Shown: positions 22,568 through 64,000 of the stretch, piece by piece | Numbering within the stretch: the first letter of the stretch is position 1 | How the letters are laid out: the number at the start of each line of letters is the position of its first letter | DNA from: Prochloron sp. | GTDB taxonomy: Bacteria > Cyanobacteriota > Cyanobacteriia > Cyanobacteriales > Prochloraceae | DNA: 64,000 nt | Assembly (NCBI GenBank): GCA_965198675.1 | Contig: OZ240666.1 | Coordinates: 146,806-210,805, forward strand | Reading direction: 5' to 3' | Made by a program: the position numbers and the translations under genes | Notes under the pieces: model-generated | What the model was told of the DNA's origin: nothing | Databases searched by the model: none | Seen by the model: only the letters and a program-made list of their open reading frames with translations

Positions 22568-23323
22568 CAGAGGGGCGTAAAGCAGTCTTCTTGGGGGATT
22601 TAGTGGACAGGGGACCAAAAATCTTGGCTACCCTTAAGTTAGTGCGGAATATGGTGGAATTGGGCACTGCTTTGTGCGTTCCCGGGAACCATGATATCAA
22701 GTTGGTGCGGAAGCTGGAAGGCAGAAATGTGCAAGTTAAGCACGGTTTAGCCCAGACTTTAGCAGAGTTGGAACCCCTTTCAGAAGAGTTTAAGCAGTCT
22801 ATTGCTGCTTTCCTTGACGGTCTCGTCAGTCACTACGTCCTAGACCAGGGTAAATTAGTAGTAGCCCATGCAGGAATGAAAGAGTCCATGCAGGGTAGGG
22901 GTTCGGGACAAGTGCGCAGCTTTGCCCTCTATGGGGAAACAACTGGGGAAATTGACCAGTTTGGTTTACCAGTGCGCTATGAGTGGGCCAAAGAATATCG
23001 GGGTCAAGCTCTGGTTGTGTACGGTCATACCCCTGTTCCCGAACCAGAATGGCTCAATAATACCATCGATATCGATACGGGTTGCGTTTTTGGGGGGAAG
23101 TTGACTGCACTGCGCTATCCGGAAAAGGAACTGGTTTCTGTTGCTGCTGGGAAAACCTATTGTGAACCAGTGAAGCCTTTTTTACCTAATGTCGGCAGAA
23201 GGCTCACACCATAATCTTCGACCTGCTAAGGTCTGGCTATACCTTAGCAGGGGTGTGAGATGAATGACGACGCCGGGATTTATATGCTAGAATAAATCAA
23301 ATGGGCAGGCAATGGATAAGACC

Positions 23324-24572: not shown

Positions 24573-26065
24573 CAATATGGGAATCCCCCGCTATACTGCG
24601 TAGCAGTTAGCGGCGGGAGGATGTCAATTACCACCCAACAGCAGTTGGACGATGTGTTAGAGTTGGAAGACTTGTTAGTTAAAAAGACCATTGAGACCAG
24701 ACTGGGACCCAGGGTAACTATTGGGGAAGAAAATGCTAGGACTGCCTTGGAAGTCATGAGTCGATTTGCAGTTAATCCCAAGTGGCTGATATATTTACCC
24801 TCAACCATGTCTCCCTCGGAAACTTCCAGTAAACCGGGTTTATTGGAATATCCCACAGAAGCTTTTGCTTATTATAGTCGTCTGGGTGTCTCTCAAGTAA
24901 TTTGCGAAGAAAAGCATATGGGTTCCCGGGGGATAGTTATAGTGTGTCGGCATGAAGAGGCAGCACAACGGCGATTTGGGGTAGTTGACGAAGGGATTGG
25001 CATTTGCTATAGTCGTACAGGAAGGCGTTTCTTTAAGAATCCAAAGCTGGAATAGGAAGTACTAACTCAATTACAAAGAGCACTTACAAGAGGGGGATTT
25101 TGGCAAGAGTTTGAGACGGACTGGATTTGTTTGGACTGCGAAATAATGCCTTGGTCTGTGAAAGCTGAGGAACTGATTCGAGAACAATATGCAGCAGTGG
25201 GGGTAGCTGCACGGGTTGCTCTGTCTTCTGCTGTTTCTTTGCTCCAACAAGGTGCGGTGCGGGGTTTAAATGTGGGGGAAATTTTAACTCGCTATCAGGA
25301 GAAGGAGCAATTAGCCCAACGATACGTACAAGCATACCGTCCTTATTGTTGGGAAGTGAATGGTATTAGGGACTTAAAGTTAGCTCCGTTCCACCTGTTA
25401 GCCACAGAAGGGGCAGTTTACGGGGATAGGGACCATCTCTGGCATCTGAATATATTAGGGCAAATCTGTCGTACTGACCCCTTGTTAATGACACCAACTG
25501 AGTATAAAGTAGTGGATACCAAAAATCCAGATTCGGAAGCAGAAGCAATTAAGTGGTGGAAGGAACTTACTGCTGCGGGGGGAGAAGGAATGGTAGTTAA
25601 ACCTTTGTCTTTTATAGCTAAAAGCAAACGGGGGTTAATGCAACCAGCATTGAAATGTCGCGGTCAGGAATATTTGCGGATTATCTATGGTTTGGAATAT
25701 ACTTTGTCAGAGAATTTGGAGCGATTGCGTCAGAGAGGGTTATCTAGGAAGCGGAGTCTAGCATTGAAAGAGTTTTGTTTGGGTATGGAAGCTTTGGAGC
25801 GATTTGTGGAACGGGAACCTTTGCGTCGGGTTCATGAATGTGTCTTTGCTATTCTCGCATTGGAGAGTGAACCTGTGGATCCTCGTTTGTAGGGTGGGCA
25901 TTGCCCACCAATAACCACCCGTACCCTCGTCTCCCCGCCCGCGAATGAATTGCGGACTACCTTATAAAACACCGAGCGGGTTGAATATTGAGTTGCGTTC
26001 AAACAGATAATTCTGTAATGGCGCAAGGTTTGCGCCCTCTTTAAACTATCCCACTGTAGCGACAA

Positions 26066-26914
26066 ATGACAAAAAAGAAAGCCGATATCAGCACGAAAAG
26101 ATTAATTAGTTTATCTCCAAATGAGTGGATACAATGGGTCATGCAAAGAACCGAATTTGAAGCGAAAGAGATTATTTCCTCTGAGTTTCAGTGGGTGAGT
26201 CGAGAAGGAGACGTTTTAGTTAAAGCATATAGTGACGATTTGGGGGAGTTTTTAATTCTCAATGAGTTACAATTGAGGTATACTAAAAAAGTACCTCGAC
26301 GCATGAGAGCGTATGCAGCTTTGGCGGAGGAAAAATATGAACTTCCCGTTTATCCAGTTTTGATTAATATACTGGAAGCGTCTTCAGAAACCATTACTAG
26401 TTCCTTCCAGAGTAATTTTGCTGGTTTGAGGGCGATCCAAGAGTATCGAGTAATAAACTTGTGGGAAGTAGACGTAGATATAGTCTTCCAGCGCAATTTA
26501 TCTACATTGCTGCCATTAGTGCCGATCCTGAAAGGAGGAGGGAAAGAAAAAGTCATCAAACGTGCTTTAAGAGAGTTACGAGTCCAAAAACAACCAGGTG
26601 AGCTAGAATCAATATTAGGGTTCTTTGCTACCTACGTTTTAGACACTAGTTTAGTTCGAGAAATTCTGAGGTTCGATATGGCAATTTTAGAACAATCCCC
26701 TTTGTATCGAGAGATAGTCTCCAAGAGCAAACAAGAAGGCATAGCGATCGGCGAACAGCGTGGTATTCAGCAAGTCGCTACTAATATGCTCCGCATGGGT
26801 ATATCAAGGGAGCAAGTCTCTGAGGCGACAGGAATCTCTGTTGAGCAAGTGGCTCGATTACTTGAGAAATCCTCAGTATCTGAGGGGCGCGCACCGCGTA
26901 GCGGATCTCTTTGA
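26066..26914 (+). CDS. Rpn-family recombination-promoting nuclease / putative transposase (PD-(D/E)XK with DUF4351-like tail), intact copy
   Basis: 282 aa. The MTKKKADISTKRLISLSP... head and the ...LEQSPLYREIV...GIQQVATNMLRMGISREQVSEATGISVEQVARLL tail are typical of the cyanobacterial Rpn/transposase_31-like family. Confidence 0.65.
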   Translation: MTKKKADISTKRLISLSPNEWIQWVMQRTEFEAKEIISSEFQWVSREGDVLVKAYSDDLGEFLILNELQLRYTKKVPRRMRAYAALAEEKYELPVYPVLINILEASSETITSSFQSNFAGLRAIQEYRVINLWEVDVDIVFQRNLSTLLPLVPILKGGGKEKVIKRALRELRVQKQPGELESILGFFATYVLDTSLVREILRFDMAILEQSPLYREIVSKSKQEGIAIGEQRGIQQVATNMLRMGISREQVSEATGISVEQVARLLEKSSVSEGRAPRSGSL

Positions 26915-26961
26915 GATCGCTCTGGTTAGAAACGGAGCGGTTAATCTCTATATCAAGGTTT

Positions 26962-27020
26962 GGACGGTGCGTTGCCATTGCGAAGCAAAGCGTAAGCAAC
27001 CGCCTTTGGCGTCCGCACCC
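26962..27020. repeat. Short copy of the composite GACGGTGCGTTGCCATTGCGAAGC...GGCGTCCGCACC mini-element
   Basis: It shares its ends and core with 57666-57771 and 59966-60091 but has single sub-repeats. It is duplicated at 27926-27984. Confidence 0.6.
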
Positions 27021-27265
27021 TACGCAGGAGGTCAACTTGCGTCGGGTTCATGAATGTGTGTTTGCTATTCTTGCATTGAAAAGCGAACCTGTGGATCCTC
27101 GTTTGTAGGGTGGGCATTGCCCACCAATAACCGCTCGCCCGCGAATGAATTGATTGCTCTCCTTATTAAACCCCTTCAGGATTTCATATTTAGTTGCGTT
27201 CAAACATAGAAGTAGGAGCGCCACCATCTTTGCGCCCTCTTTAAATTATCCCACTATACCGACAA

Positions 27266-27878
27266 ATGACCAAAAAGAAAGCCGATATCAGCACGAAACG
27301 ATTAATTAGTTTTGATTAATATACTGGAAGCGTCTTCAGAAACGATTGCTAGTTCCTTCCAGAGTAATTTTGCTGGTTTGAGGGTGATCCAAGAGTATCG
27401 AGTAATAAACTTGTGGGAAGTAGACGTAGATATAGTCTTCCAGCGCAATTTATCTACATTGCTACCATTAGTGCCGATCCTCAAAGGAGGAGGAGAAGAA
27501 CAAGTCATCAGACGTGCTTTAGGAGAGTTACGAGTTCAAAAACAACCAAGGGAGTTAGAATCAATATTAGGGTTCTTTGCTACCTACGTTTTAGACACTA
27601 GTTTAGTTCGAGAAATTCTGAGGTTCGATATGGCAATTTTAGAACAATCCCCTTTGTATCGAGAGATAGTCTCCAAGAGCGAAAAGCGAGGTATCGCGAT
27701 CGGCGAACAGCGAGGAGAAAAGCGAGGCATTCAACGAGTCGCTACTAATATGCTCCGCATGGGTATGACAAGGGAGCAAGTCTCTGAGGCGACAGGAATC
27801 TCTGTTGAGCAAGTTGCTCGATTACTTGAGAAATCCTCAGTATCTGAGGGGCGCGCACCGCGTAGCGGATCTCTTTGA
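27266..27878 (+). pseudogene. Rpn-family gene, copy 2, with internal out-of-frame deletion of about 250 bp
   Basis: It has the same first 16 codons as copy 1, then jumps from ...LIS to VLINILEAS at an AGTTT microhomology. The frame is lost (MTKKKADISTKRLISFD*). Confidence 0.65.
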
Positions 27879-28248
27879 GATCGCTCTGGTTAGAAACGGA
27901 GCCGTTAATCTCTATATCAAGGTTTGGACGGTGCGTTGCCATTGCGAAGCAAAGCGTAAGCAACCGCCTTTGGCGTCCGCACCCTACGCAGGAGGTCAAC
28001 TTGCGTCGGGTTCATGAATGTGTGTTTGCTATTCTTGCATTGGAGAGTGAACCTGTGGATCCTCGTTTGTAGGGTGGGCATTGCCCACCAAGCAACGCGC
28101 CCTTTATAAAACCCCGACCGGGTTTCAATTACTCCCCTCCTGGGGTTGAAACCCCAGGCTATTCCCTACTCTTCTCATGATTTTTTACCCCAACAGTGCC
28201 CCTACATTTTGCCGATCGTATCAATTCTCTTGTAGGCATCGCCCACCA

Positions 28249-33806: not shown

Positions 33807-33978
33807 AATTTGTGCTTATATTAGTTTATAATAAAGTCGTGAGTTAATCTAATAAGGTTCCCACACCACCAATATTTTCCTGTTGGCAACGCACCGTCCA
33901 AACCTTAGGGGCGGGGTCTTCTCGCCCATCCACCGTTACAGCTGCTATAATGTGTATTTAGTTCTCTTTAAAATATTT

Positions 33979-35651: not shown

Positions 35652-36970
35652 ATGACCAAAGAACTGCACAAAGAGAACTTTAATAGGAATCAGATAGCTC
35701 AGTTAGTTAAAATGACGGAGGAGGAATGGAGGGAAACTCTCCGGTCTTTGTGTGACAACGGTGAGTTTGATAAAATGTGGCAGTTAGCTCAAAAAGTACC
35801 TCCTGTCTGGAGTAGGGAGCTATTACAAGAGTTGGGTAAAGTAAAATGGTCTCCCTCCTGGGAAGGGGAAAGAGAAGTTTTTCAGAAGTTGTTGTCTTTA
35901 GCAGAGAATTGTGTTGAGGAAGTACCGCTGGGGGGACTGGTAAGCTGTAAGAAGGTATTGAGAGGACATTCCAATTGGGTCAGCTGTTTAGCTATCAGCC
36001 CGGATGGTAAGATTCTTGCTAGTGGTGGGAGTGGGGACGATACCGTGCGATTGTGGGGATTACCAGATGGTAAGCACTTGTGTACTCTTGAAGGACATTC
36101 CAAATCGGTCTGGAGTTTAGCAATCAGCCCGGATGGTAAGATTCTAGCTAGTGGGAGTAGGGACAAAACCGTGCGATTGTGGGGATTACCAGATGGTAAG
36201 CACTTGCGCACTCTGAAAGGACATTCCAGAAATGTCCGTAGTTTAGCCTTCAGCCCGGATGGTAAGATTCTTGCTAGTGGGAGTGAGGACAAAATCGTGC
36301 GGTTGTGGCGATTACCAGATGGTAAGCACTTGCGCACTAAAGGACATTCCCATTGGGTCTATAGTTTAGCTATCAGCCCCGATGGTAAGATTCTCGCTAG
36401 TGGGTGTGGGGACAAAACCGTGCTGTTGTGGCGATTACCAGATGGCAAGCACTTGCGCACTCTTAAAGGACATTTCGATTTGGTCTATAGTTTAGCTATC
36501 AGCCAGGATGGTAAGATTCTAGCTAGTGGGAGTAAGGACAAAACCGTGCTGTCGGGATTACCAGATGGTAAGCACTTGTGTACTCTTGAAGGACATTCCT
36601 CTACGGTCGAATGTTTAGCTATCAGCCCGGATGGGAAGATTCTAGCTAGTGGGAGTGAAGACGAAACCGTGCGGTTGTGGGGATTACCAGATGGTAAGCA
36701 CTTGTGTACTCTTAAAGGACATTCCGGTTACGTCTATAGTTTAGCCATCAGCCCCGATGGTAAGATTCTCGCTAGTGCGAGTAAGGACAAAACCGTGCGG
36801 TTGTAGACATCAGAGTTACCTCGTGTCACTGCTTTACCCCTAGAGCAACTGACTCCAGAAGATATAAAGTGGGTGGAGGGAGCATTGGAAAATAAAAATA
36901 TTACAGAAGATGAGCGTCATTGGTTAGAATTTACCTTAGAATTAATACGGTGGGAGCAACGATTCGATTC
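35652..36970 (+). pseudogene. WD40-repeat protein, paralog 1 (premature TAG, small in-frame deletions, 3' end truncated)
   Basis: It has the same 110-aa N-terminal domain as 37812..39215. The repeats read GHS..V.SLAISPDGKILASGS.DKTVRLWGLPDGKHL. A TAG at 36804-36806 replaces the Trp of VRLW. Homology continues (TSELPRVTALPLEQLTPEDIKWV...) until it is cut by an inverted Rpn fragment at about 36970. Confidence 0.7.
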
Positions 36971-37811: not shown

Positions 37812-39215
37812 ATGACCAAAGAACTGCACAAAGAGAACTTTAATCGGAATCAGATAGAGCGATTGGTAAAAATGACGGAGGAGGAATGGAGGGAAACTCT
37901 CCTATCTTTGTGTGATAACTGTGAGTTTGATAAAATGTGGCAGTTAGCTCAAAAAGCACCTCCTGTCTGGAGTAGGGAGCTATTACAAGAGTTGGGTCAA
38001 GTAAAATGGTCTCCCTCCTGGGAAGGGGAAAGAGAGGTTTTTCAGAAGTTGCTGTGGTTAGCAGAGAATTGTGTTGAAGAAGTGCCTAAGTTGGGCGGTT
38101 TAGTAAGCTGTCAGAAGGTATTGAAAGGGCATTCCAATAGTGTCTCTAGTTTAGCAATCAGCCCCGATGTTAAGATTTTTGCTACTAGTGGTAGGAATTT
38201 GGACTCCACCGTGCGATTGTGGGGATTACCAGATGGTCAGCATTTGCGCACTCTGAGAGGATATTCCGTTTCCGCCTATAGTTTAGCAATCAGCCCGGAT
38301 GGTAAGATTTTAGCTAGTGGGAATTATAACGATACCGTGCGGTTGTGGCGATTACCAGATGGTCAGCGCTTGCGCACTCTTAAAGGACATTCCGATACGG
38401 TCACTATTTTAGCAATCAGCCCGGATAGTAAGATTCTTGCTAGTGGGGGAGGTGTTGACAAAACCGTGCGGTTGTGGCGATTACCAGATGGTAAGCACTT
38501 GCGCACTCTTAAAGGACATTCCTATGGGGTCAATTTTTTAGCCTTCAGCCCGGATGGTAAGATTCTTGCTAGTGGGGGGGAAAATATCGTGCGATTGTGG
38601 CAATTACCAGATGGTAAGCACTTGTGCACTCTTACAGAACATTCCCATTTGGTCTATAGTTTAGCTATCAGCCCCGATGGTAAGATTCTTGCTAGTGGGA
38701 GTAGGGACAAAACCGTGCGGTTGTGGCGATTACCAGATGGTAAGCACTTGCGCACTCTTAAAGGACATTCCTATGGGGTCAGTAGTTTAGCCTTCAGCCC
38801 GGATGGTAAAATTCTAGCTAGTGGGGGTGGGGACAGAACCGTGCGGTTATGGGGATTACCAGATGGAAAGCACTTGTGTACTCTTAAAGGACATTCCGAT
38901 TCTGTCTGGAGTTTAGCAATCAGCCCCGATGGGAAGATTCTTGTCAGCGGGAGTCGTCAGAACGGAACCCTGCGATTATGGACATCAGAGTTACCTCGTG
39001 TCACTGCTTTACCCCTAGAGCAACTGACTCCAGAAGATATAAAGTGGGTGCAGGGAGCATTAGAAAACAAAAACATTACGGAAGATGAGCGTCATTGGTT
39101 AGAATTCATCTTAGAATTAATACGGTGGGAGCAACGATTCGATATTGAAATTGAGATTGATGATCCAGAATCCAGAGAAAATCCGGTCGAGTTTGATATT
39201 GAAATAGAAGGATAA
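37812..39215 (+). CDS. WD40-repeat protein, paralog 2 (intact)
   Basis: It starts MTKELHKENFNRNQIERLVKMTEEEWRETL. It has about 8 WD40 blades and a C-terminal acidic extension (RFDIEIEIDDPESRENPVEFDIEIEG). Confidence 0.75.
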   Translation: MTKELHKENFNRNQIERLVKMTEEEWRETLLSLCDNCEFDKMWQLAQKAPPVWSRELLQELGQVKWSPSWEGEREVFQKLLWLAENCVEEVPKLGGLVSCQKVLKGHSNSVSSLAISPDVKIFATSGRNLDSTVRLWGLPDGQHLRTLRGYSVSAYSLAISPDGKILASGNYNDTVRLWRLPDGQRLRTLKGHSDTVTILAISPDSKILASGGGVDKTVRLWRLPDGKHLRTLKGHSYGVNFLAFSPDGKILASGGENIVRLWQLPDGKHLCTLTEHSHLVYSLAISPDGKILASGSRDKTVRLWRLPDGKHLRTLKGHSYGVSSLAFSPDGKILASGGGDRTVRLWGLPDGKHLCTLKGHSDSVWSLAISPDGKILVSGSRQNGTLRLWTSELPRVTALPLEQLTPEDIKWVQGALENKNITEDERHWLEFILELIRWEQRFDIEIEIDDPESRENPVEFDIEIEG

Positions 39216-42529: not shown

Positions 42530-43005
42530 AACCGATAATTGCGCTCCCCTACCCAAAGACTAACGGGGACTGCATTTCCTTTACTATCCACCTTCACTTC
42601 TACCACAAATTGCCGTTCTTCCTTTTGTATCTCCCTGATCTGGGCATTAATCTCCTTACGCTTATTTTCTGGCATATAATAGGTTTCCAGCCCATAGTCA
42701 ATCCAGTCAGCACCCCCGGCTGAAGCACGGTTGCTCTCATGCCTCCAGCTTCAGGTAGCTGACCAGCCGTAGGATGCGTTACGCCATAGCTGTCAGCTTT
42801 AAACACTTCTCCAGACGTGTGCTAACGCATCCTACTTAACTGACTACGTTTTCCTTCGTCACGACACCTTCAGGTGCTTTCCAGCCTGTCGCTCTGTCGC
42901 TAATCATTAAACAGCCTTAGTAGGGGTAAAGCAGTGTGGTTGGCCCAACAAGCTTAGAAAACATTGGCAAGGAACACATTACACATCTGTAGACGAGACG
43001 CAACC

Positions 43006-47718: not shown

Positions 47719-47880
47719 TGCTAGGGTGCTAGGGTGCTAGGGTGCTAGGGTGCTAGGGTGCTAGGGTGATAGGGGGAATATTTGTCGGTAGCGCGCGTGG
47801 CGCACTCGCTCTGGACCAATCTCCTCATCTCCTCATCTCCTCATCTCCTCATCTCCCAATCTCCCAATCTCCCAATCTCC
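47719..47880. repeat. Two octamer tandem arrays: (TGCTAGGG)x6 and (ATCTCCTC)x4-(ATCTCCCA)x3
   Basis: Both are read directly. The first array (47719-47766) is flanked by the direct repeat GGTGATAGGGGGA. The second lies at 47818-47880. Confidence 0.9.
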
Positions 47881-53823: not shown

Positions 53824-54429
53824 AAGGCAATTAGCAGTTAGAAGTTAACAGTTTATATTTATCTACTCATTATAACTCAAGAAGTAAAACAAATCAAATT
53901 AAATTTGATTTAGAGTTTTAAAGGGTTGTTGTAACACAATAATTATTTTGGACTAGTTAATAATAATAAATCAAAATTATTGGCTCTCTATTGGCATCTA
54001 TTAAAACCTATAGCAGTGAGCGAGTCAAGTATTTACAAACTTCTTAAAACAAACATTTACTCAAACTACGGTGGCGTTGCATCTCTATTCTGTAACTGTT
54101 CTCCAAGGTGCACTCTTCACATATAAAGTGCGATCGCTATAGGTCTTATGGGAGAGTTGGAGATAGCGCGAAGCGCTATAAATCACACTTCATACCAAGT
54201 TTCGGCATAATAGTAGCAATCTCGAAGACTAGAGCGAAGCGGTACGCTCTGGAACAAGTTTTCCTAAATCAAATATATAGCGCTACGCGCGGGTGTAGGG
54301 TGTGGGGTGGCGCCACCCGTGTGGGGAAGATAAAAGCCTTATAGAACAATACTTTTAGGAGTTGTTCTTCATCTAGACTTGTCGCAATCCCCCGTTGCTG
54401 TGCTATATCATTCCGATGCAACCGGAATT

Positions 54430-54732
54430 GATATTACGGGTTCAAGAACAACCAGGAGAGCTAGAATCAATGTTAGGGTTCTTTGCTACCTACGTCTTAG
54501 ACACTAAGTAGGTAAGCAAATTCTGAGGTTAGATATGGCAATCCTAGAACAATCCCCTTTGTATCGAGAGATAGTCGAGAATAGCGAAAAGCGAGGCATC
54601 GCGCTCGGCATTCAGCGAGTTGCATTAAATATGCTCCGTATGGGCATGGCAAGGTCGCAAGTCTCTGAGGCGACAGGACTCTCTGTTGAGCAAGTGGCTC
54701 GATTACTTGAGAAATCTTCGGTATCTGAGTAA
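54430..54732 (+). pseudogene. Rpn-family gene, copy 4 (3' fragment)
   Basis: QPGELESMLGFFATYVLDTK-stop, then MAILEQSPLYREIVENSEKRGIALGIQRVALNMLRMGMARSQVSEATGLSVEQVARLLEKSSVSE. It is homologous to the last third of 26066..26914. Confidence 0.6.
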
Positions 54733-55265: not shown

Positions 55266-56167
55266 GAACCCATTTGAGATCTCTGTTGTGGAGTAAAATA
55301 GGGAAAAAATGCCGTACTCAAGTAGTTTGACAGACGGGGAGTGGAAAATAATAGAACCTCTGTTGCCCAAAAAGAAACAGACAAGACCACCAAAATGGAG
55401 TAAAAGGCAGATTTTAGATGGTATCTTGTACCAATTAAAGAATGGTTGTAATTGGTGTGACTTACCCAAAGACTTGCCCCCCTATTCCACAGTATTTTGG
55501 TACTACAAACAGTGGCGATCGCTTGGGGTAATCGAAGCAATCAGAGATATCTTGCATAGTAGAGTCCGTCAGCAAGTTAAAAAAAAAGGGCAATGGACAA
55601 CCCTAATCATCATTGACTCCCAAGCGGTAAAAAATACCTGTAACGCCAGTGTAAAGTCGAAAGGGTTTTGTTTTTACAAGTCTACCAATGGTCTTAAAAG
55701 ACATCTAGCAGTAGATACTTTGGGCTTTCCTTTTTTTAGTCATTGCACCAAAGCATCGGTATCTGACGATGTGGGTTTGATTGAAATGTTATCGAAAAAC
55801 ATAGATTATTTCAAGTCTAAACCAGTCAACATCCCCAAGATTACCATTTTGCTTGACCATGGATATCACCCAGAAAAACTGACCCAGGAATTACATAAAA
55901 TTTATCCGGCGATTATGACTAAGATTAGATTTAAGGTCTCCCGTAAACCATCAAAAGCTCAAAAGAAAAAGAAAGGAAAAACCGGTTTTGTGCCAGTAAA
56001 AGCGCGGTGGGTGATTGAAAGAACTAATTCGTGGATGGAAAGATGCAAGAGTTTGGTCAAAAACTTTGAAAGGACTCTTGAGCAGGCTAATACCAAGATT
56101 AGTCTATGTTTTGTCCGACTGATGCTTAAAAGGCTAGCCACTACTTAAAAAGATCTCAAATGGGTTC
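55266..56167 (+). mobile_element. IS5-family insertion sequence (902 bp) with 17-bp perfect terminal inverted repeats and 4-bp TATA target duplication
   Basis: Left IR GAACCCATTTGAGATCT (55266-55282), right IR AGATCTCAAATGGGTTC (56151-56167). The element is flanked by TATA at 55262-55265 and 56168-56171. Confidence 0.85.
55309..56148 (+). CDS. IS5-family DDE transposase
   Basis: MPYSSSLTDGEWKIIEPLLPKKK...RQILDGILYQLKNGCNWCDLPKDLPPYSTVFWYYKQW is the DUF4096-type N-terminus. It is followed by the DDE domain (IIIDSQAVKN..., LDHGY..., RWVIERTNSW). Confidence 0.85.
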   Translation: MPYSSSLTDGEWKIIEPLLPKKKQTRPPKWSKRQILDGILYQLKNGCNWCDLPKDLPPYSTVFWYYKQWRSLGVIEAIRDILHSRVRQQVKKKGQWTTLIIIDSQAVKNTCNASVKSKGFCFYKSTNGLKRHLAVDTLGFPFFSHCTKASVSDDVGLIEMLSKNIDYFKSKPVNIPKITILLDHGYHPEKLTQELHKIYPAIMTKIRFKVSRKPSKAQKKKKGKTGFVPVKARWVIERTNSWMERCKSLVKNFERTLEQANTKISLCFVRLMLKRLATT

Positions 56168-56480
56168 TATAGGTATCTGCTGTCTGGGCAAAAGCCGTAT
56201 AATACACAGACAAATCCCGGGTATGACTTTCGCTATGGGCCGGAGTATTCTGATAATGGGCGTCAAAAACGATTTCCGTCTTATAGCCCACAATAGCAGT
56301 GTAATTAATTAAAACTTCTACCAACTCTCCTCTAGCTGAGGAAAGCCCATCATTATCCCTGGTCTTTTTCAGAGACGACCAAGTACCGATGACGTTATAA
56401 CCGTCAACGAGTAGGAGTACTGGGTCTGATTTGGAGGACATTTTTGCTGGTGGGAGGTTGGTTGGATAGTTCTTAAGAAT

Positions 56481-57185
56481 TTACTCATTATTATACTCTG
56501 CGTAATTTGTACGGAGTACAATCTCCAGCAGTCTTTCTCTGAGATGTTGTGGTTCTCCTCGATCTACAACCTTCCCACCGTCCAGCAAAAAAGCACCATC
56601 GCAATAGTTCAACTCTTCTAAGCGGTGGGTAACCCAGAGGGCAGTTAAGCCGCGACTTTTAACTAACCGTTGTACCTGTGCCACTAGCTCTAACTGAGCA
56701 TCGGGATCCAGGAGAGCCGTGGGTTCGTCTAGGAGTAAGGTCTCGCAGCGACGAGCGATGGCTCCCGCGATGGCAATCCGTTGCTTTTGCCCCCCGCTGA
56801 GAGCGTAAATGGGCCTTCTGGCCAAATCCAGAAGATTCACTGCTTCCAGCGAGGAGGCCACTCGCTCTCTTACTTTAGCTAAAGACAGCTTTTCTGCCAC
56901 CAGTCCAAAAGCCACGTCTGCCCCTACTGTGGGCATTACTAGCTGGCGATCGGGATTTTGAAAGACAAAACCTACTGGCTGGGTAATTTCAATTTGCCCT
57001 CCACAGGAGGGCAATAGTCCTGCTAGCAACCGCAGTAATGTAGATTTGCCGCTGCCATTATTCCCCAAGAGCATCCAAAATTCTCCCTTAGGTACTTCCA
57101 GAGAGCAGGATTTTAACAAGGGCTTTTCTGGACTCCAGCTAAAGTCTAAATCTTGCACTCTAATGGCACTGGCTGATGAATTCAT
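56481..57185 (-). CDS. ABC transporter ATP-binding protein (energy-coupling-factor/CbiO-like)
   Basis: Walker A GNNGSGKSTLL, signature LSGGQKQRIAIAGA, Walker B LLLDEPTALLD. Confidence 0.75.
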   Translation of the reverse strand: MNSSASAIRVQDLDFSWSPEKPLLKSCSLEVPKGEFWMLLGNNGSGKSTLLRLLAGLLPSCGGQIEITQPVGFVFQNPDRQLVMPTVGADVAFGLVAEKLSLAKVRERVASSLEAVNLLDLARRPIYALSGGQKQRIAIAGAIARRCETLLLDEPTALLDPDAQLELVAQVQRLVKSRGLTALWVTHRLEELNYCDGAFLLDGGKVVDRGEPQHLRERLLEIVLRTNYAEYNNE

Positions 57186-57418
57186 TCCTTTTCAGCTGCC
57201 GTAAAGAAACCCGGGGCCTTCCCAGAGGCTGTGGTGCTAGATTTCTGGGACACTATTACAGCGCAGACATGTTCTGACAGGACAGCTATTTGTTTATCCG
57301 GCTGCTTTTCGCAGGTCAATTCCAGCATTTGCTTGGTACGGGATCCCATTGCTTTCACAATTTCCCGGTATAGCTTAAGGGCATCCTCTTTTTCTTTCCG
57401 TTGCACCGAGAGGGTCAT
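57182..57418 (-). CDS. Hypothetical small protein, co-transcribed with the ABC ATPase
   Basis: MTLSVQRKEKEDALKLYREIVKAM... It overlaps the downstream gene by 4 nt. The TTG start at 57439 in the ORF track abuts the intron 3' end, so I prefer the ATG at 57418. Confidence 0.4.
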   Translation of the reverse strand: MTLSVQRKEKEDALKLYREIVKAMGSRTKQMLELTCEKQPDKQIAVLSEHVCAVIVSQKSSTTASGKAPGFFTAAEKE

Positions 57419-57512
57419 CGGTGTGTTCTTCACAGTCAAGTCGGGTAAGGTTCAGGAATCACTTCCCTCCCCTCCCCTAAGAACCGGACGTGACAGTTTC
57501 CTATCATCCGGC

Positions 57513-59462
57513 TCAAGCCTCACCCCGACAGTTGCCTGTCGGCCCTACTTGCTTGGATTTCTTGGAGTGTACCTGTTTATGACACGGGACGCTAACGCAG
57601 TTGCTTACGCAATTGTGTATGTGCATAAGGTTGTCAGTGTCGTCTGACCCCCCTTTCGCTACAGGCCGACACCGCGTTGGCCATTGCGAAGCTTTGCGAA
57701 GCAACCGCCTTTGGCGTCCCGCCTTTGGCGTCCCGCCTTTGGCGTCCCGCCCAAGGCGGGAGCGGTGTCGGTGTGGTGGGTTTCGATTTCTGAACCGCAG
57801 ATAATTGCTACGCAATTGTCTTTTCTGCCAGTATTCCTTCAATTCTGGATCGTCTGGGGAGTTAGTCCCCGTTACTTTGACATGTCTTATAAGAGGTTCC
57901 GATGTTATTTCGTATAGGTCGTGAGTTATCCCTCGGCCTTTACGGTCAGTTCCCTCATAGAAGAATTGCCATTCCTTTTTGCGACCTCCCTTTCGGGTGA
58001 TGATTCGGAAATATTTGTTCTTGACCCACTTTTTACTTTTGTTAGGGTGCCGTCTCTTTGCCCAACGCCAAAGGTACCACCATAGTCGGTAGCTAATGTG
58101 ACTAAAGGTTTCTTTGCTGCATACCCCTTTGTAGTAATTAGCAAAACCTCTGAGAAGCGGTTCTAGTTTTCGGGTAACTTGCTCTGGGGTTCTTGTCTTC
58201 ATGCTGTCGATGGTTTCACCGAGCTTCTTGCAGAATTCCACTACCTTTGACTTTTGAGGCTTGATGAGAAGTTTGTCCCTGGGGATTCCGTCTTCACCTT
58301 TAACCTTATACTGCCTCAGGTTAAACCCTAGGAAATCGAACCCGTCACTGATGTGGACTATCCTTGTCTTCTCCTCACTGAGATTGAGACCTATTTCTGA
58401 CAACCATTGATTTATCTGGATTTTCAATGCCTCCAAGGATTCCTTATCCTTTGCAGTGACGACAAAGTCGTCTGCATACCTGATGACGCCTACCTTTGGG
58501 TTGCATTTCTTGATGAATTTCTCTAATCCGTGGAGTCCGACATTGGCCAACAGCGGACTAATTACGCCACCCTGGGTCGTACCTGTTTTGGTCGGGTTGT
58601 ACCCACCCCTACCCCCTCCCAGGAGGGGGACTTTGGGGGTGGGTTCGACGAATCCAGCTTTTAACCATCCTCTGATTGAAGGGATGTACCCCATTCTGGT
58701 CAGGATAGATTCATGATCAATATTGTCAAAGAAGCCTTCAATATCAGCGTCCAGAACCCACTTATCGTATTTGCGCATCTGCCCGGTTTTGGTTTTGTGG
58801 TCGCCTCTTAGCCTTATGAAGCATTGTGCTATGGCGTCGTGGCAACTCCGTCCCGGTCTGAAACCATAGGAGTTGGCCTCAAATTCAGCTTCCCATTGGG
58901 GTTCCAGTGCATTTTTAACTATTGCCTGAGCGACTCTATCCCTCACGGGACGCCAAGGGCGGGACGCCAAGGGCGGGACGCCAAGGGCGGTTGCTTCGCA
59001 AAGCTTCGCAAAGCTTCGCAAAGGGATTCCGAGGGGCCGACAGGCAACTGTCGGCTTGCCGTTTGCCTTTGGAATATATATCCGTCTGGCGGGTGCTGCT
59101 GTTGGCATTTTCCATAGAGAGGCAAGTTTCACACGCTGTTCTGGGGTATTTATGACCTCCTTATCTATCCCCGATGTTTGCTTTCCGGTATAACCCCCCC
59201 CCTTAATCCCGGGGGGGAGATGACAAGGGGGGTAAGGGGGGATTTTCCGCTGTGTGATTTGTCTGATGCTCAGGAGTAGATTCGAGCGGCACCTTTTCAT
59301 TAGTTTCTGCAATCGCAGTACTTGCTTATGCAGTCCAAGCTTTTGAGCACGAAAGATTCGATTTCTTAGATTCCTGACGATTTTCCTGGTTTGACGCCAT
59401 TTGACATCGCCCCATTCAGATAATTGTCCCTCCGGTCCATTTTCCAGAATCGCTTCTGTCAT
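57513..59462 (-). CDS. Group II intron reverse transcriptase/maturase with HNH-like tail
   Basis: RT motifs are present (RRIYIPKANGK, GFRPGRSCHDA, VLDADIEGFFDNIDH, TTQGGVISPLLANV, IRYADDFVVTA). There is a maturase X region and a C-terminal GGSDDTDNLMHIH..CHKQVH. The ORF is open over 649 aa despite four repeat insertions. Confidence 0.8.
   Translation of the reverse strand: MTEAILENGPEGQLSEWGDVKWRQTRKIVRNLRNRIFRAQKLGLHKQVLRLQKLMKRCRSNLLLSIRQITQRKIPPYPPCHLPPGIKGGGYTGKQTSGIDKEVINTPEQRVKLASLWKMPTAAPARRIYIPKANGKPTVACRPLGIPLRSFAKLCEATALGVPPLASRPWRPVRDRVAQAIVKNALEPQWEAEFEANSYGFRPGRSCHDAIAQCFIRLRGDHKTKTGQMRKYDKWVLDADIEGFFDNIDHESILTRMGYIPSIRGWLKAGFVEPTPKVPLLGGGRGGYNPTKTGTTQGGVISPLLANVGLHGLEKFIKKCNPKVGVIRYADDFVVTAKDKESLEALKIQINQWLSEIGLNLSEEKTRIVHISDGFDFLGFNLRQYKVKGEDGIPRDKLLIKPQKSKVVEFCKKLGETIDSMKTRTPEQVTRKLEPLLRGFANYYKGVCSKETFSHISYRLWWYLWRWAKRRHPNKSKKWVKNKYFRIITRKGGRKKEWQFFYEGTDRKGRGITHDLYEITSEPLIRHVKVTGTNSPDDPELKEYWQKRQLRSNYLRFRNRNPPHRHRSRLGRDAKGGTPKAGRQRRLLRKASQWPTRCRPVAKGGSDDTDNLMHIHNCVSNCVSVPCHKQVHSKKSKQVGPTGNCRGEA
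57666..57771. repeat. Composite mini-element: CCGACACCGC...GCGGTGTCGG inverted ends enclosing GCGAAGCTTTGC-type and 14-nt GCCTTTGGCGTCCC tandem sub-repeats
   Basis: 106 bp with three 14-nt units. It lies inside the RT ORF. Confidence 0.8.
58602..58643. repeat. C/G-run palindromic mini-element, 42-nt in-frame copy inside the RT ORF
   Basis: CCCACCCCTACCCCCTCCCAGGAGGGGGACTTTGGGGGTGGG. It is homologous to 23369-23414. Confidence 0.7.
58947..59024. repeat. (GGGACGCCAAGGGC)x3 plus (TTCGCAAAGC)x3 array, inverted orientation, inside the RT ORF
   Basis: Read directly. It is followed by the palindrome GCCGACAGGCAACTGTCGGC (59035-59054), also present at about 57524-57543. Confidence 0.8.
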
Positions 59463-59965
59463 CTAACTTTTCCTTTGGTTGGGTTTCTATTTCGTCGTCT
59501 CGTTCGTATGAGACCCAAGTGAAGTCTGCTATTCCTTTCGGTCAAGGGCAAATTTTGAACCCTTATCCCCTTCATTACAAAGAGGCGTTCGCTTTCTCAC
59601 TCATCCTTTACCCTCCAGAGGGTTCTGCCGCCGTTACCTTTGGCTTACTGAGAGTATCGACCTGACTCTCAGACTCTGTAGGGCTTATCCTGTTGTATCG
59701 CTTAGTTTTCTTTTAGCTGGTTAGGATGGTTCCTTTCCCCCGGGAGAGCTTCATTTCCACATCTAGTTGAAAAGACAGCATCTAGATTCGTCTCCTTGCC
59801 TTTTTGGCTACGGCGTATCAGAGATAATTTCGCCGTTCGTTCCTTACGAGGTTTAAACGGAAGGTTCGGTTTTGTTCGGTATTTACTACCTGGATTCCTC
59901 CGATTTCCTTTGAGTTTCGAGAAGCTTCTCCCTTTTCTCTCGGTATTCGGGCGGGTTATCCAACC

Positions 59966-60091
59966 CCGACACCGCGTTGGCCATTGCGAAGCTTTGCGTA
60001 AGCTTTGCGTAAGCTTTGCGCAAGCTTTGCGTAAGCAACCGCCCTTGGCATCCCGCCCTTGGCGTCCCGCCCTTGGCGTCCGCGGTGTCGG
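59966..60091. repeat. Composite mini-element, long copy (4 x 12-nt AAGCTTTGCGTA units, 3 x 14-nt units) in the intron ribozyme region
   Basis: It has the same inverted ends as 57666-57771 but different sub-repeat copy numbers. Confidence 0.8.
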
Positions 60092-60519
60092 CCCTTTTAC
60101 TTCGCTTTCGCTCATCCTTCCAACTATTTCCCTCTTGCTCCTGGCACTTAATCTCTAGTGTTTCGGTTACTTTCGGGGCCTGCATTCCAGCTGTTTCGTT
60201 ACCTACTTGGCTGTGACCGGACTCATGGAGTCTTTTCCGTGAGGGTTAGGGGTGGAAATCCCTAAGAGGCTCGGTGCCTCATACTAAGCGACCAGTTCAG
60301 GCCGCACGTCAATGGTAAACATCAAGACATTATTGCAATAGTACAATCTCTATTATAGCCCGTGTTTGTTGGTGGTGGGTGGTTCCCATGACTCATGACC
60401 CACTACCCATTACCCAATTTTTGAACCACAGATGATTGCGAAGCAAAGCGCAAGCAAAGCTTCGCAATCATCTGCGTGTATCTGCGGTTACAATTTTTAT
60501 ATTTTCTTAAGATTTGGGG

Positions 60520-60549
60520 TTGCCAAAGTCTAAAGGTTTCCTTTAATAT
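60520..60549 (+). promoter_or_regulatory. Candidate sigma-70-type promoter upstream of psbD (TTGCCA-N18-TAATAT)
   Basis: The -35-like TTGCCA is at 60520-60525 and the -10-like TAATAT at 60544-60549, about 125 nt upstream of the ATG. This is a sequence resemblance only. Confidence 0.25.
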
Positions 60550-60675
60550 AAAATAAGTTAAGAAACGTAACGATTTTTCACATTTCCTCTACTCTTCTGC
60601 TTAATCCCAGGAGATCCGCGATGAGCGAGAGAAATTTCAATCCTTGTCCTCATATCATATTCAGAGATTTGCGTC

Positions 60676-61734
60676 ATGACAGCTGTAATATCTCGCGCCC
60701 CAGCTCAGAGAGGATGGTTTGACGTCCTCGACGACTGGCTCAAGCGCGATCGCTTTGTATTTGTTGGTTGGTCCGGTATTCTGCTCTTCCCCTGCGCTTA
60801 TTTAGCGCTCGGGGGTTGGCTCACGGGCACAACTTTCGTCACTTCTTGGTACACCCACGGTCTCGCCTCCTCCTACCTAGAAGGGGCGAACTTCTTAACC
60901 GTAGCGGTTTCCAGCCCTGCGGACGTCATGGGACATTCCCTTCTCTTCCTCTGGGGACCAGAAGCCCAGTGGGACTTCACCCGCTGGTGCCAAATTGGCG
61001 GTCTCTGGAGCTTCGTTGCTCTCCACGGTGCCTTCGGTTTAATCGGTTTCATGCTGCGACAGTTTGAAATCGCCCGTCTGGTAGGAATTCGCCCCTATAA
61101 CGCCATCGCCTTCAGCGGTCCTATTGCGGTATTTGTGAGCGTTTTCCTCATGTATCCTTTGGGACAGTCCAGCTGGTTTTTTGCTCCCAGTTTCGGTGTA
61201 GCAGGGATTTTCCGCTTTATCCTCTTCTTACAAGGATTCCACAACTGGACCCTGAACCCCTTCCACATGATGGGAGTAGCAGGTATTCTGGGAGGTGCCC
61301 TGTTGTGCGCAATCCACGGAGCGACGGTAGAAAATACCTTGTTCCAAGACGGAGAAGACGCTAATACCTTCCGCGCTTTCACCCCCACCCAAGCTGAAGA
61401 AACCTATTCCATGGTGACAGCGAACCGTTTTTGGTCCCAAATCTTCGGCATTGCCTTCTCCAACAAGCGTTGGCTCCACTTCTTCATGCTGTTCGTCCCT
61501 GTGACTGGCTTATGGATGAGTTCTGTAGGTATTGTGGGTTTAGCTTTGAACCTGCGGGCTTACGACTTTGTCTCCCAAGAACTGCGGGCTGCTGAAGACC
61601 CCGAGTTTGAGACCTTCTACACTAAAAACATTCTGTTGAACGAAGGTTTGCGGGCTTGGATGTCTAGCCAAGATCAGCCTCACGAGAACTTTGTCTTCCC
61701 TGAAGAAGTTCTACCTCGTGGTAATGCTCTCTAA
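60676..61734 (+). CDS. psbD: Photosystem II D2 protein
   Basis: 352 aa, near-identical to canonical D2 ([30 protein letters not shown]...[12 protein letters not shown]). No overlapping psbC follows, so this is a monocistronic psbD copy. Confidence 0.97.
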
Positions 61735-61798
61735 AAGTTTGCGGGTGTTGGATGAGTAATAATCATCCTCCCTATTACAGTTTTTTATACTCTGCTTT

Positions 61799-61826
61799 AG
61801 CCCCTACTTCAGGGGCTTATTTTTGC
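61799..61826 (+). terminator. Rho-independent terminator after psbD
   Basis: Stem AGCCCCT / AGGGGCT with loop ACTTC, followed by TATTTTTGC. Confidence 0.6.
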
Positions 61827-61972
61827 TTGATTATGTATTAATCTAGTTGAATAACAAGGTAAATGCGCTATATCATTTTATATCAATCAACATGTCTCCA
61901 CTGATCTACGAAATATTGGGACTTGATAATTTTACTGAAGCTGGGGCAAAACAAACACCGTAGGATCTCCAG

Positions 61973-62332
61973 ATGATTGAACTGATTCGTCAGGGACTTT
62001 CCCCATCTACTGCTTCCAGAGTAGCAGAGTATTCTGGACTATCCAAGGAGCAACTTTTGGGGTTGCTGGGAAGTCAAGAGAATACTCTATCTAAGGGTTC
62101 CGAAGAAAACAAACTGCTTGATTCCATCTCCTCAGATCGACTTTACCGCGTTGCTCGAACTGTTGCTCTTGCTATGGAAGCATTCGAGGATGGGAATAAA
62201 GCAAGACGGTGGCTTCATAAACCTAATCGCGCTTTAGGAGGAGGAGCACCCTTAGAACAGTTGGACACTGATGCGGGGATAGAACAAGTCCTGACATTAT
62301 TTAATCGCATCGAGTACGGAGTTTACAGTTGA
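61973..62332 (+). CDS. DUF2384 (Xre/MbcA/ParS-type) antitoxin
   Basis: SDRLYRVARTVALAMEAFEDGNKARRWLHKPNRALGGGAPLEQLDTDAGIEQVLTLFNRIEYGVYS is the characteristic DUF2384 C-terminal toxin-binding domain. Confidence 0.7.
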   Translation: MIELIRQGLSPSTASRVAEYSGLSKEQLLGLLGSQENTLSKGSEENKLLDSISSDRLYRVARTVALAMEAFEDGNKARRWLHKPNRALGGGAPLEQLDTDAGIEQVLTLFNRIEYGVYS

Positions 62333-62506
62333 TCATCTCCCTATGGCGAATATCCAAACTCCGAAATTATACATCAGAAAAGCAACTATTTGTTAAATTC
62401 ATTGCATCCTGACTTTTCTAAGATAATCATCCATCCTCCAGAACCTTTCACCCTGGAGCCTCGAATGTGGATAATAATATCACATCCGGTAACTAGACTA
62501 AAATAT

Positions 62507-62899
62507 ATGAGGAAAAGACTCTTACTCACCTTGTTATCTCTGCTGATAGTAACGCCTCTCGGCTTTTATCTCAAATTCTATCCAGGTTTAGGTCGGGAGT
62601 GGGTTAATAATTATTCAGCTGGGATATTATACGAGATTTTCTGGTGTTTGTTTTTCTTTTTGGTTATACCCAGGAAAAAAGCAGTTATTACTATTCCCCT
62701 GTGGGTTTTCGGTATCACCTGCTTATTGGAAATCCTGCAACTGGTGAAAACGCCAATTTTGAACCTAATGCGGTCTAATTTTATAGGTAAATTGCTCTTG
62801 GGAACTACTTTTTCTTGGTGGGATTTTCCCCATTATTTAGTCGGTTGTCTCATTGGTTGGTTATGGCTGAGACAAATTTGGCTCATGTCCAGAGAGTGA
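62507..62899 (+). CDS. DUF2809-like membrane protein
   Basis: MRKRLLLTLLSLLIVTPLGFYLKFY...YSAGILYEIFW...CLLEILQL...LLGTTFSWWDFPHYLVGCLIGW. Four helices and the F.W.D motif as I recall for DUF2809. Confidence 0.5.
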   Translation: MRKRLLLTLLSLLIVTPLGFYLKFYPGLGREWVNNYSAGILYEIFWCLFFFLVIPRKKAVITIPLWVFGITCLLEILQLVKTPILNLMRSNFIGKLLLGTTFSWWDFPHYLVGCLIGWLWLRQIWLMSRE

Positions 62900-63300
62900 T
62901 TTTAAGAGTTTCACGCAGCGGTGCGGTGCGTTCTTCTGGAATCTGATTCGGGCTTATTGCGCACCAAGCGGGTTTGGCCAACACCGAAGGTGCCGCCAAA
63001 GGCATCCCTTAGCAGGGGCACAGAGGGCGCAGAGAGGGTGCTATAGGCGAAGCAGGTGCGGACATTTGAGCTTTGGTGACGAGGTCTCGTCTTCTAGGGA
63101 GCATCAATTAAGCTATTGTAACCCCATAGGTTTATGCTCTGACCAAGGAAAAATACTAATTTTCTCATTCGCCCACTTGTTGACATAAAGAAAGCGCCTG
63201 TAGTGGGCAAGTGCTTCAGTTCATTTCAGTTTTGTCAGTCAACCAGCCAACAGACCACAGATCTGGTAACTGGTCACTGGTAACTGCTAACTGAATTAAA

Positions 63301-63373
<73 letters not shown>

Positions 63374-63665
63374 AAGCTTTTTCTCAAGCTCTTATTACTG
63401 TAACACCATAGTTTTGGATTTGTCAAGGGGAAAATCAAAATTAATTGAAAAAATTTTTGTCTTTGACAAATAGTTGCTATAGTGGTATAATAACCAACGA
63501 AGTGTATACCATAGGATTGATGAAAGCTGGCAAAAATTGGAAGGAGGCGGTAGGAAAAATATAGCGATCGCCTAAGATAGCGATCCCAGAGACGAACGGA
63601 AAAGAGAGGCTTATCGTTATCGGTGATAAGCGAGCTGCAGGCACAACAAAGGCTCGGAGGTAATT

Positions 63666-64000
63666 TTAATTGATTTCGTCCGGGTGTACTCCCATTTCTA
63701 GTAAACGCTGGGCTAACTTTTCAGCGCGTTGGCGTTCAGTTTCGGCCTGTTGGCGTTCGGTTTCAGCCCGTTGGCGTTCGGTTTCAGCCCGTTGGTGTTC
63801 GGTTTCAGCCCGTTGGCGTTCGGTTTCGGCCTGTTGTTCCAGGGTTTTGATTTTGGGACGCCAAGGGCGGGACGCCAAGGGCGGGACGCCAAGGGCGGGA
63901 CGCCAAGGGCGGTTGCTTACGCAAAGCTTGCGCTTTGCTTCGCAATTGTTCTTCTTTAATTAATTCCTCCACCAACGGCGGATCCAGTAGTTCTTTGACC
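63666..64000 (-). CDS. Partial gene (5' end outside window) ending in an (AETERQR)x5 heptad array; interrupted by a 14-nt-repeat mini-element
   Basis: The C-terminus is ...KIKTLEQQAETERQRAETEHQRAETERQRAETERQQAETERQRAEKLAQRLLEMGVHPDEIN*. Upstream sequence (VKELLDPPLVEELIKEEQ...) is separated from it by (GGGACGCCAAGGGC)x4 at 63855-63910. Confidence 0.4.

Follow-up and report, generated by a model that had tools for sequence, protein, structure and literature searches.

A 27-nt double-hairpin repeat with strain-variable internal arrays in a relative of Candidatus Paraprochloron terpiosi

A 64,000-nt stretch of the Prochloron sp. contig OZ240666.1 (hereafter the window) contains a dispersed repeat whose basic unit is a 27-nt core with two adjacent hairpins. 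In the window the core carries two internal arrays of short units, and the lengths of these arrays differ between close strains. We favor, with moderate confidence, the reading that these elements derive, by nesting and internal amplification, from a non-coding small dispersed repeat (SDR) with two hairpins, and that they are selfish or neutral DNA. A sequence-only reading of the window had described a dispersed, nested, non-coding mini-repeat with two internal short-unit arrays, and this description is supported; the copies that it listed all exist, at or 1–17 nt from where it placed them. Three features go beyond it: the siting of three of its copies in one group II intron, the AAC target triplet, and a second subfamily. 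The window is of cyanobacterial origin (psbD lies at 60676–61734), its threonine synthase has 98% identity to a Ca. Paraprochloron SP5CPC1 protein, and an SP5CPC1-like contig of ~21 kb is syntenic with it at 91–99% nucleotide identity; the host is a relative of Ca. Paraprochloron terpiosi, and the repeat is common to this host and Paraprochloron. Paraprochloron and its kin are unicellular sponge symbionts that are related to Prochloron and are not Nostocales.

Each copy was parsed as (A unit)n-AAC-(B unit)m, where A is NTTGCG(N)AAGC and B is CGCCYTTGGCGTCC, the bare core being the (1,1) form. The core is 27 nt long, ATTGCGAAGCAACCGCCYTTGGCGTCC, and is predicted to fold into the hairpins TTGC-GAA-GCAA and CGCC-YTT-GGCG. 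There are eight family copies in the window; the AAGCAACCGCCYTTGGCRTCC junction occurs six times against 0.00 expected (100 shuffles), and GGCGTCCCGCC occurs 11 times against 0.41 expected. In a scan of species-representative genomes, the junction gave many matches in each of Ca. Paraprochloron terpiosi LD05 and SP5CPC1 and, among the matches listed, only single chance matches elsewhere; three viral matches, all without any A unit, were rejected as chance, and metagenome scans for the repeat returned no match. Our Paraprochloron sample comprises ~40 copies in 300 kb of LD05 and SP5CPC1 loci chosen for carrying the junction motif, and the bare form accounts for 31 of the 40 (16/22 in LD05 and 15/18 in SP5CPC1), with sharp ends and unrelated flanks. 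Bare cores also occupy positions homologous to window copies: the site between GIP and VRDRV of a reverse transcriptase holds one in a sister strain (described below) and in the introns of sampled loci L070 and L056, and the site in the tail of a Uma2-family gene holds one in the Paraprochloron homologues L024, L047, L014, and L062. The prevalence of the (1,1) form and its presence at these sites identify the 27-nt core as the basic unit and the window copies as expansions of it.

The core is found in open reading frames (ORFs) in all frames and both orientations, in group II introns, in heptamer arrays, in GCAGAT repeats, and in palindromes. It has no stop codon in any of its six frames, and 31 of 54 copies lie inside open frames of at least 150 aa; copies counted across loci in this way are not all independent. 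A second subfamily, ACACCGAAGGTGCCGCCNNNGGCGTCC (ACACCGAAGGTGCC…), has the same second hairpin with a first hairpin of CACC-GAA-GGTG, such that the two first-stem types, TTGC/GCAA and CACC/GGTG, differ by three compensated base pairs. Anchoring on the second hairpin alone recovers these two types only, with no half-changed intermediates, and the second stem has one CGCT/AGCG variant. A structure-based scan yields 58 matches against 0 in each of five shuffles, and together with the covarying stem this offers limited but clear evidence that the fold matters. Expanded copies are distributed unevenly between the subfamilies, with 0/11 of the CACC type and 19/54 of the A type (Fisher p = 0.025, for copies that are not all independent), although the difference loses significance when only the B arrays are counted (p = 0.33). 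We did not find the core sequences in the literature searched, nor are they mentioned in the Paraprochloron genome paper.

To find empty sites, the flanks of each copy were joined and searched across all sampled DNA. The empty homologous sites that this recovered always have exactly three extra bases, and these are AAC in five independent sets: ggaatccc-AAC-tgtg and cttgcc-AAC-tcatgg at two reverse transcriptase sites, catccact-AAC-tactgcg where L018 is filled and L061 is empty, and catcg-AAC-cgctcg and acga-AAC-cggacg for the CACC-type families X and Z, respectively. From empty to filled, 3 nt become 27 nt, a net gain of 24 nt. Judged by these alignments, the core is shown to replace the AAC triplet wherever an empty homologous site is available. 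Target-site preference and target-site duplication had both been raised in the sequence-only reading; the preference is present, as AAC, and there is no duplication at any filled/empty pair. The commonest repeat contexts supply AAC at the right place, as in gcagatgAACgcagat and ctggtAACtgg. The repeat family (A)ACCGCAGAT(G/A)AAC, which lies at 57795–57818 and 60425–60480 of the window and at many Paraprochloron loci, often in tandem with a 10-nt period, is a favored landing site for the core via its AAC.

The GIP|VRDRV site illustrates the direction of the change. It is empty, with AAC as a threonine codon, in L071, L072, and the outgroup reverse transcriptases, and other cyanobacterial reverse transcriptases have the canonical GIPT(V/I)RDRV. 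In a neighbor-joining tree the filled introns are scattered among empty ones and are not monophyletic. The canonical motif in the outgroup and the lack of monophyly mark the change as an insertion rather than a deletion, and the scatter implies that one site was hit repeatedly or that gene conversion took place. At another homologous intron position, shared by L069 (14620) and L042 (~2745–2775), one locus has a CACC-type core and the other an A-type core, which points to separate hits at a hot spot or to one subfamily having replaced the other. Two other descriptions of the insertion were set aside. A scheme in which the central AAC is kept, with 10 + 14 nt added beside it, fits the A type, but the CACC type replaces AAC and has TGC at its center; and an integron-like G^TT/AAC crossover was rejected as AAC is not rebuilt at the junctions.

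Array length was compared with that in a sister strain (ENA ERZ22157276, a 4,718,108-nt contig), whose orthologous locus, L069, has the same neighboring genes and was reached via P0001, the closest homologue of the reverse transcriptase (96–97% identical). The comparison covers this one locus and the four elements in window positions 56168–64000, over which the strains have 98.1% identity. Of 15 indel events, eight are inside the four elements, and all of these are whole 10/11-nt and 14-nt units. At 58948 the window has (3,3) and the sister strain (1,1), a difference of +48 nt, or 2A+2B; at 59983 the states are (5,3) and (4,1), the window being longer by 39 nt, or 1A+2B. At 63856 the window has (3,4) and the sister strain (2,2), and at 57683 they have (2,3+1) and (3,2), respectively, with unit sequences that also differ at both sites. 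Further unit-wise indels of +28 and +11/+12 nt occur among the four elements. Array length therefore differs at 4/4 orthologous elements, and the reading frame is changed twice; the hypervariability proposed in the sequence-only reading is thus seen between strains, with no element of identical length among the four. A fifth comparison, across species (sister-strain L072 and LD05 L009), shows expansion at an orthologous site. The B arrays at 57706–57761, 58948–58989, 60040–60081, and 63856–63911 are each 28 nt (two units) longer than those of the sister strain, and this uniformity may be accidental, or it may come from a preference for two-unit steps, from a bias in one lineage, or from the assembly.

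The strains also differ outside the four elements. The sister strain has an extra group II intron (L069 14569–15657) with a CACC-type copy, and the window has ~660 nt of other sequence there (53943–54604). A 900-nt insertion in the window (55266–56168), with a 279-aa ORF (55309–56148), is missing from the sister strain, and at 61851, 62970, and 63585 there are further indels (156 nt and 44 nt found only in the sister strain, and 63 nt found only in the window). The 44-nt segment adjoins the CACC-type copy and has the direct repeat cttagcagggg at its boundaries.

All six window copies that were parsed are expanded, and every independent locus has its own (n,m) pair, in agreement with the proposal that copy number differs at each locus. 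Tandem Repeats Finder gives periods of 10 and 11 nt for the A array and 14 nt for the B array; the A unit had been taken as 12 nt, and, while the arrays reported with it are real, the first unit had been left out of the count. Two composite copies lie within the intron. The first (57666–57771, forward strand) is (2,3) plus one inverted B-like unit, with arms at 57666–57675 and 57762–57771, a GTTGGCC spacer, A units at 57683–57702 (2 × 10 nt), AAC at 57703–57705, B units at 57706–57747 (3 × 14 nt), and the inverted unit CGCCCAAGGCGGGA at 57748–57761; its DNA fold has a predicted energy of -38.4 kcal/mol (z = -6.2). The second (59966–60091, forward strand) is (5,3), with the same palindrome arms at 59966–59975 and 60082–60091, A units at 59983–60036 (10 + 4 × 11 nt), AAC at 60037–60039, and B units at 60040–60081 (3 × 14 nt). 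Two expanded cores are on the reverse strand: a (3,3) copy at 58948–59022, which is in frame in the reverse transcriptase ORF and encodes LRSFAKLCEATALGVPPLASRPWRP, and a (3,4) copy at 63856–63946 in the C-terminal part of the Uma2-family gene, where it shifts the frame.

A 38-nt (2,1) form on the forward strand at 26977–27014, ATTGCGAAGC AAAGCGTAAGC AAC CGCCTTTGGCGTCC, lies ~50 nt downstream of an Rpn-like gene and within the palindrome GGTGCGTTG..CGCACC (26966–27020). The same 38-mer is present in L019, L040, and L061 in other contexts, and the gene cassette that bears it is missing from SP5CPC1-like contigs. Its duplicate at 27941–27978 (forward strand) comes from a 964-nt segmental duplication with identical flanks, and thus the elements at 26962 and 27926, both of which are real, do not count as independent loci. 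A variant core at 57587–57613 (reverse strand), ATTGCGTAAGC AAC TGCGTTAGCGTCC, has a second hairpin with a GTTA loop and is in frame in the reverse transcriptase ORF as an NCVSNCVS insertion; similar second-hairpin variants are found in L023 and L059. The CACC subfamily is represented at 62981–63007 (forward strand) by ACACCGAAGGTGCCGCCAAAGGCATCC, with a first hairpin of CACC-GAA-GGTG and a second as in the A type. The palindrome noted earlier at 60431–60472 (forward strand) is real, with a DNA fold of -20.3 kcal/mol (z = -7.5); it consists of A units only, ATTGCGAAGC ... GCTTCGCAAT, lies within inverted GCAGAT-type repeats, and is shared with the sister strain.

The inverted ends of the composite copies had been read as part of a full form, CCGACACCGC...GCGGTGTCGG. 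These 10-nt arms are found around the 57666 and 59966 copies only, and when AAC is put back in place of the arrays, the remaining shell is a perfect 30-nt palindrome, CCGACACCGCGTTGGCCAACGCGGTGTCGG, with halves CCGACACCGCGTTGG|CCAACGCGGTGTCGG. The ends thus belong to a separate 30-bp host palindrome and not to the element, and the element is nested, the core having hit the AAC of that palindrome. At the 59966 position the whole palindrome and its core are missing from the related introns L070–L072, and we found no empty copy of the 30-bp palindrome in the sampled DNA. The supposed minimal forms with GACGGTGCG ends have the same core inside a different palindrome, the 26962 shell with AAC restored being GGTGCGTTG-C-CAACGCACC. 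The fragment reported at 33885–33905 (reverse strand; GGACGGTGCGTTGCCAAC) exists, but by our reading of the sequence it is an unfilled left half of this 26962-type outer palindrome (GGTGCGTTGCCAAC), with its AAC intact, and not a piece of the core.

The group II intron that hosts these elements occupies 57440–60307 on the reverse strand, with its 5' GTGCG at 60307 and domains V/VI at 57440–57516 (Rfam), and its reverse transcriptase/maturase ORF (57513–59462, reverse strand) has RVT_N, RVT_1, and GIIM domains. It contains four family copies (57587, 57666, 58948, and 59966) together with at least three other mini-insertions. The 59966 copy is in the 5' ribozyme part, the 58948 copy is in frame between GIP and VRDRV, and the 57666 and 57587 copies are in the remains of the HNH endonuclease (En), the CxxC and HH motifs of which are gone. 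With these motifs replaced by repeats, the intron is predicted to be maturase-only and is probably immobile. The ORF is open over 649 aa despite at least six small insertions; it is in frame in the window, and in the sister strain an array-length frameshift truncates it at 579 aa. For the Uma2 tail it is the sister strain that keeps the frame and the window that loses it, and the sister strain's Uma2 gene is split; both frame-switched genes, Uma2 and the reverse transcriptase tail, look degenerate. The reverse transcriptase ORF also holds in-frame insertions of three other mini-palindrome families (59180–59245, 59035–59055, and 58596–58640), all missing from related introns: a 54-nt C-run/G-run palindrome that encodes IPPYPPCHLPPGIKGGGY, GCCGACAGTTGCCTGTCGGC (PTVA), and CCCACCCCTACCCCCTCCCAGGAGGGGGACTTTGGGGGTGGG (TPKVPLLGGGRGG).

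If the elements are indeed an amplified SDR-like repeat, dispersal would need a trans-acting activity that recognizes the folded hairpins and the AAC target, and gains and losses of array units would come mainly from hairpin-forming direct repeats that misalign in replication or repair. Two B units fold as a nested hairpin; this could favor 28-nt steps and may explain the uniform difference among the B arrays. Copies could persist in genes because the core is stop-free in six frames and adds a multiple of three nucleotides, and array changes that are not a multiple of three would shift the downstream frame.

Several observations weigh against this interpretation. We found no enzyme or donor intermediate, mobility being read from the distribution of copies and from filled/empty sites only. 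Also, over ~15 kb no core was seen to be present in one of the two close strains and absent from the other, and recent transposition is therefore not demonstrated. Simple slippage fails to account for the step from m=1 to m=2, and it leaves unaccounted both the T/AAA start of the inner A units, as opposed to A in single copies, and the strain-specific unit sequences at 57683 and 63856. Finally, the uniform +28 nt of the four window B arrays could indicate a directed process or an assembly effect.

Some of these difficulties bear on how the arrays are built. We give limited credence to a model in which family members re-insert into the central AAC of an A-type core, each event adding an A unit and a B unit that flank AAC, with slippage only trimming the result. 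The arrays do flank the central AAC exactly, n equals m in several copies (3,3 at 58948, and 2,2 in L032 and in L069 at 5467), the reverse transcriptase site differs by +2A and +2B between strains, and unit sequences differ between strains at two loci. The CACC subfamily, which lacks an internal AAC, has none of the expanded copies, although this contrast is not significant for B arrays alone and the counted copies are not all independent, as noted above. Re-insertion is harder to reconcile with most of the expanded copies, in which n ≠ m, as in (2,1), (3,1), (4,1), (5,3), and (3,4), and the junction that it predicts, AAGC-ATTGCG, is not seen, the inner A units beginning with T or AAA and free cores with A. 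In a related and equally tentative proposal, dedicated structure-recognizing machinery might write the 27-nt double hairpin over AAC, and the arrays would be the trace of re-targeting of the A-type AAC, an ongoing process active at the strain level, and not of passive slippage. Such insertion machinery is a candidate in view of the covariation between the two subfamilies and of the strictness with which AAC is replaced, and an enzyme of the reverse transcriptase or HUH type is imaginable; ~50 reverse transcriptase genes are reported for Paraprochloron.

It is doubtful that the family is a repetitive extragenic palindrome (REP)/REPIN-like element moved as single-stranded hairpin DNA by an HUH tyrosine transposase (RAYT or IS200/IS605 TnpA). 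The small hairpins and a CGTC near one end (GGCGTCC) are reminiscent of REPs, which can sit in ORFs and, in the CGTC type, occur without a dedicated transposase (PMC3733652); Y1_Tnp and OrfB IS200/IS605 genes are present in the sister genome (L071), and there is a HEARO RNA in the window. The stems, however, are 4 bp rather than the 8–9 bp of CGTC-type REPs, the CGTC is not an unpaired 5' tag, there are two different hairpins instead of one, and head-to-head dimers are lacking. No Y1 transposase or RAYT gene flanked by cores was found in the ~0.5 Mb sampled. The core replaces AAC, whereas IS200/IS605 elements integrate on the 3' side of a fixed tetra- or pentanucleotide, which is kept at the left end. 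A CGTC-type REP was rejected for its stem length, and IS200/IS605-type insertion was rejected for the lack of a conserved 5' flank.

We regard it as improbable that the 87–126-nt form with 10-bp inverted ends is a conventional transposable element of the miniature inverted-repeat class (MITE) and that the shorter forms are its decayed fragments. Such a form has perfect 10-bp terminal inverted repeats and a size within the MITE range; a single intron holds two copies that share an orientation, and the whole unit is missing from related introns. These ends, however, are on 2 of the ~60 sampled family copies, the rest having other flanks or none; there is no target-site duplication; and the 27-nt form is the majority, with sharp identical ends and filled/empty sites of its own. 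Restoring AAC turns the ends and spacer into a perfect palindrome, which points to a separate host element.

A cellular function for the copies, as terminators, RNA-stability hairpins, protein-binding sites, or phase-variation switches, appears very unlikely. The folds are strong, two copies lie ~50 nt after stop codons, cores are near-identical in introns whose reverse transcriptases share only ~80% protein identity, and two reading frames, that of the Uma2 gene and that of the reverse transcriptase tail, are switched by array changes. The copies nonetheless occur in every frame and in both orientations within ORFs, in ribozyme domains, and in other repeats, no T run follows the hairpins, and both frame-switched genes already look degenerate, with the endonuclease motifs lost in one and Uma2 split in the sister strain. 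It is hardly credible that assembly or polishing errors in short tandem repeats produced the length differences: the same +28 nt in the same direction in all four B arrays would fit, but the differences are exact unit multiples and include different unit sequences, the arrays are at most 130 nt and so below the length of any read type, both genomes are single multi-megabase contigs, and several states recur in independent Paraprochloron assemblies (LD05, SP5CPC1, and ENA contigs).

Other features of the window include two tandem Rpn-like (DUF4351-type) gene cassettes at 25911–28001, after a Pnkp RNA-repair gene. Each ends with a palindrome-plus-core and a ~90-nt copy of the Pnkp 3' end, and the block is missing from L073–L075; it could be mobile, as a cassette by which a long piece of the target is duplicated. 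Pnkp itself is one 858-aa ORF in SP5CPC1-like contigs and three ORFs in the window (23185–24628, 23475–25892), with ~1.4 kb that does not align to L073. The HEARO RNA, an IscB/IS200-605-associated RNA, is at 42706–42982 on the forward strand (108 bits) in a block missing from L073, and downstream of it is a 193-aa ORF flanked by 8-mer arrays; this suggests a decayed IscB element. Long coding tandem repeats lie at 18292–19501, 35963–36804, and 38147–38954, with a 325-nt period and 126-nt WD40-type units; the latter are in two paralogous genes that are missing from L073. Two adjacent 8-mer arrays, TGCTAGGG ×7 and ATCTCCTC ×8, are at 47719–47880.

How ultra-small dispersed repeats move has been a question since the 2008 description in Nostoc, and this family gives unusually clean handles on it: a replaced three-base target, a compensated stem, filled/empty pairs in multi-copy group II introns, and strain-variable arrays. 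With these, hypotheses on the machinery become testable through comparative genomics and read-level population data. The arrays are also ready-made strain markers for uncultivated sponge symbionts. The recurrent peptides PRAGRQGRDAKGG and LASRPWRP that were noted earlier are present in the ORF translations; the arrays give rise to frameshifts, to odd in-frame peptides (LRSNRPWRP, IAKQPPLAS, and PRAGRQGRDAKGG), and to spurious ORFs, all of which annotators should mask.

Several known systems share parts of this behavior. As in variable-number tandem repeats, contingency loci, and short tandemly repeated repetitive (STRR) heptamer arrays, unit number differs between close strains and non-triplet units shift reading frames. 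We found no evidence of adaptive switching, the two frame changes both being in degenerate-looking genes, and, in contrast to those systems, the arrays arise within a dispersed mobile repeat at many loci at once. MITEs such as Nezha of Anabaena and Nostoc (PMC3184786) resemble the 87–126-nt composite in having inverted ends, a stable fold, and filled/empty sites, but the composite has no target duplication, no matching insertion sequence was seen in the sampled DNA, and the inverted ends, which two copies alone have, derive from a host palindrome.

REPs have one 8–9-bp stem and a GTAG or CGTC tag, are usually inverted dimers, are mostly extragenic, and are linked to RAYT (PMC3116915, PMC3733652). 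The core family resembles REPs and REPINs as a short GC-rich hairpin repeat that is sometimes in ORFs and is possibly handled as single-stranded DNA hairpins; the single long stem, the tag, the inverted dimers, the extragenic bias, and, within the ~0.5 Mb sampled, the RAYT link were not found in it.

The Rickettsia palindromic elements (RPEs) that Ogata and colleagues are said to have described in 2000 are reportedly single long palindromes of ~100–150 bp in an intracellular alphaproteobacterium. They are similar in being selfish palindromic repeats that lie in frame in genes that stay open, the added peptide being tolerated. They differ in size, the core being 27 nt, and in lacking internal arrays, and we know of no AAC target rule for them. 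Rickettsia palindromic elements are also mentioned in PMC3733652.

The closest known kind appears to be the SDRs of Nostocales, to which the sequence-only reading had aptly likened the family in size, hairpins, nesting, and precise insertion; we liken the two by such features. SDR1–8 of Nostoc punctiforme and its relatives, described by Elhai and colleagues in 2008 (Genome Res 18:1484), a paper that PMC4390886 and PMC3116915 cite, are reportedly 21–27 nt long. In both cases there is a non-coding unit, here of 27 nt, with predicted hairpins and many near-identical copies in unrelated contexts, including genes; both nest in other repeats and insert precisely at a very short target without duplication, and the mover has been identified in neither. 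In the HIP1 palindrome, for example, SDR5 enters between nucleotides 3 and 4 (PMC4390886). The core family differs from SDRs in having two adjacent hairpins, in replacing its target triplet, in its non-Nostocales host, and in the amplification of its hairpin modules into strain-variable tandem arrays. To our knowledge, tandem amplification of hairpin modules has not been described for SDRs. What is new here is an SDR-like family in a different cyanobacterial lineage, with hairpin modules that are amplified and vary between strains.

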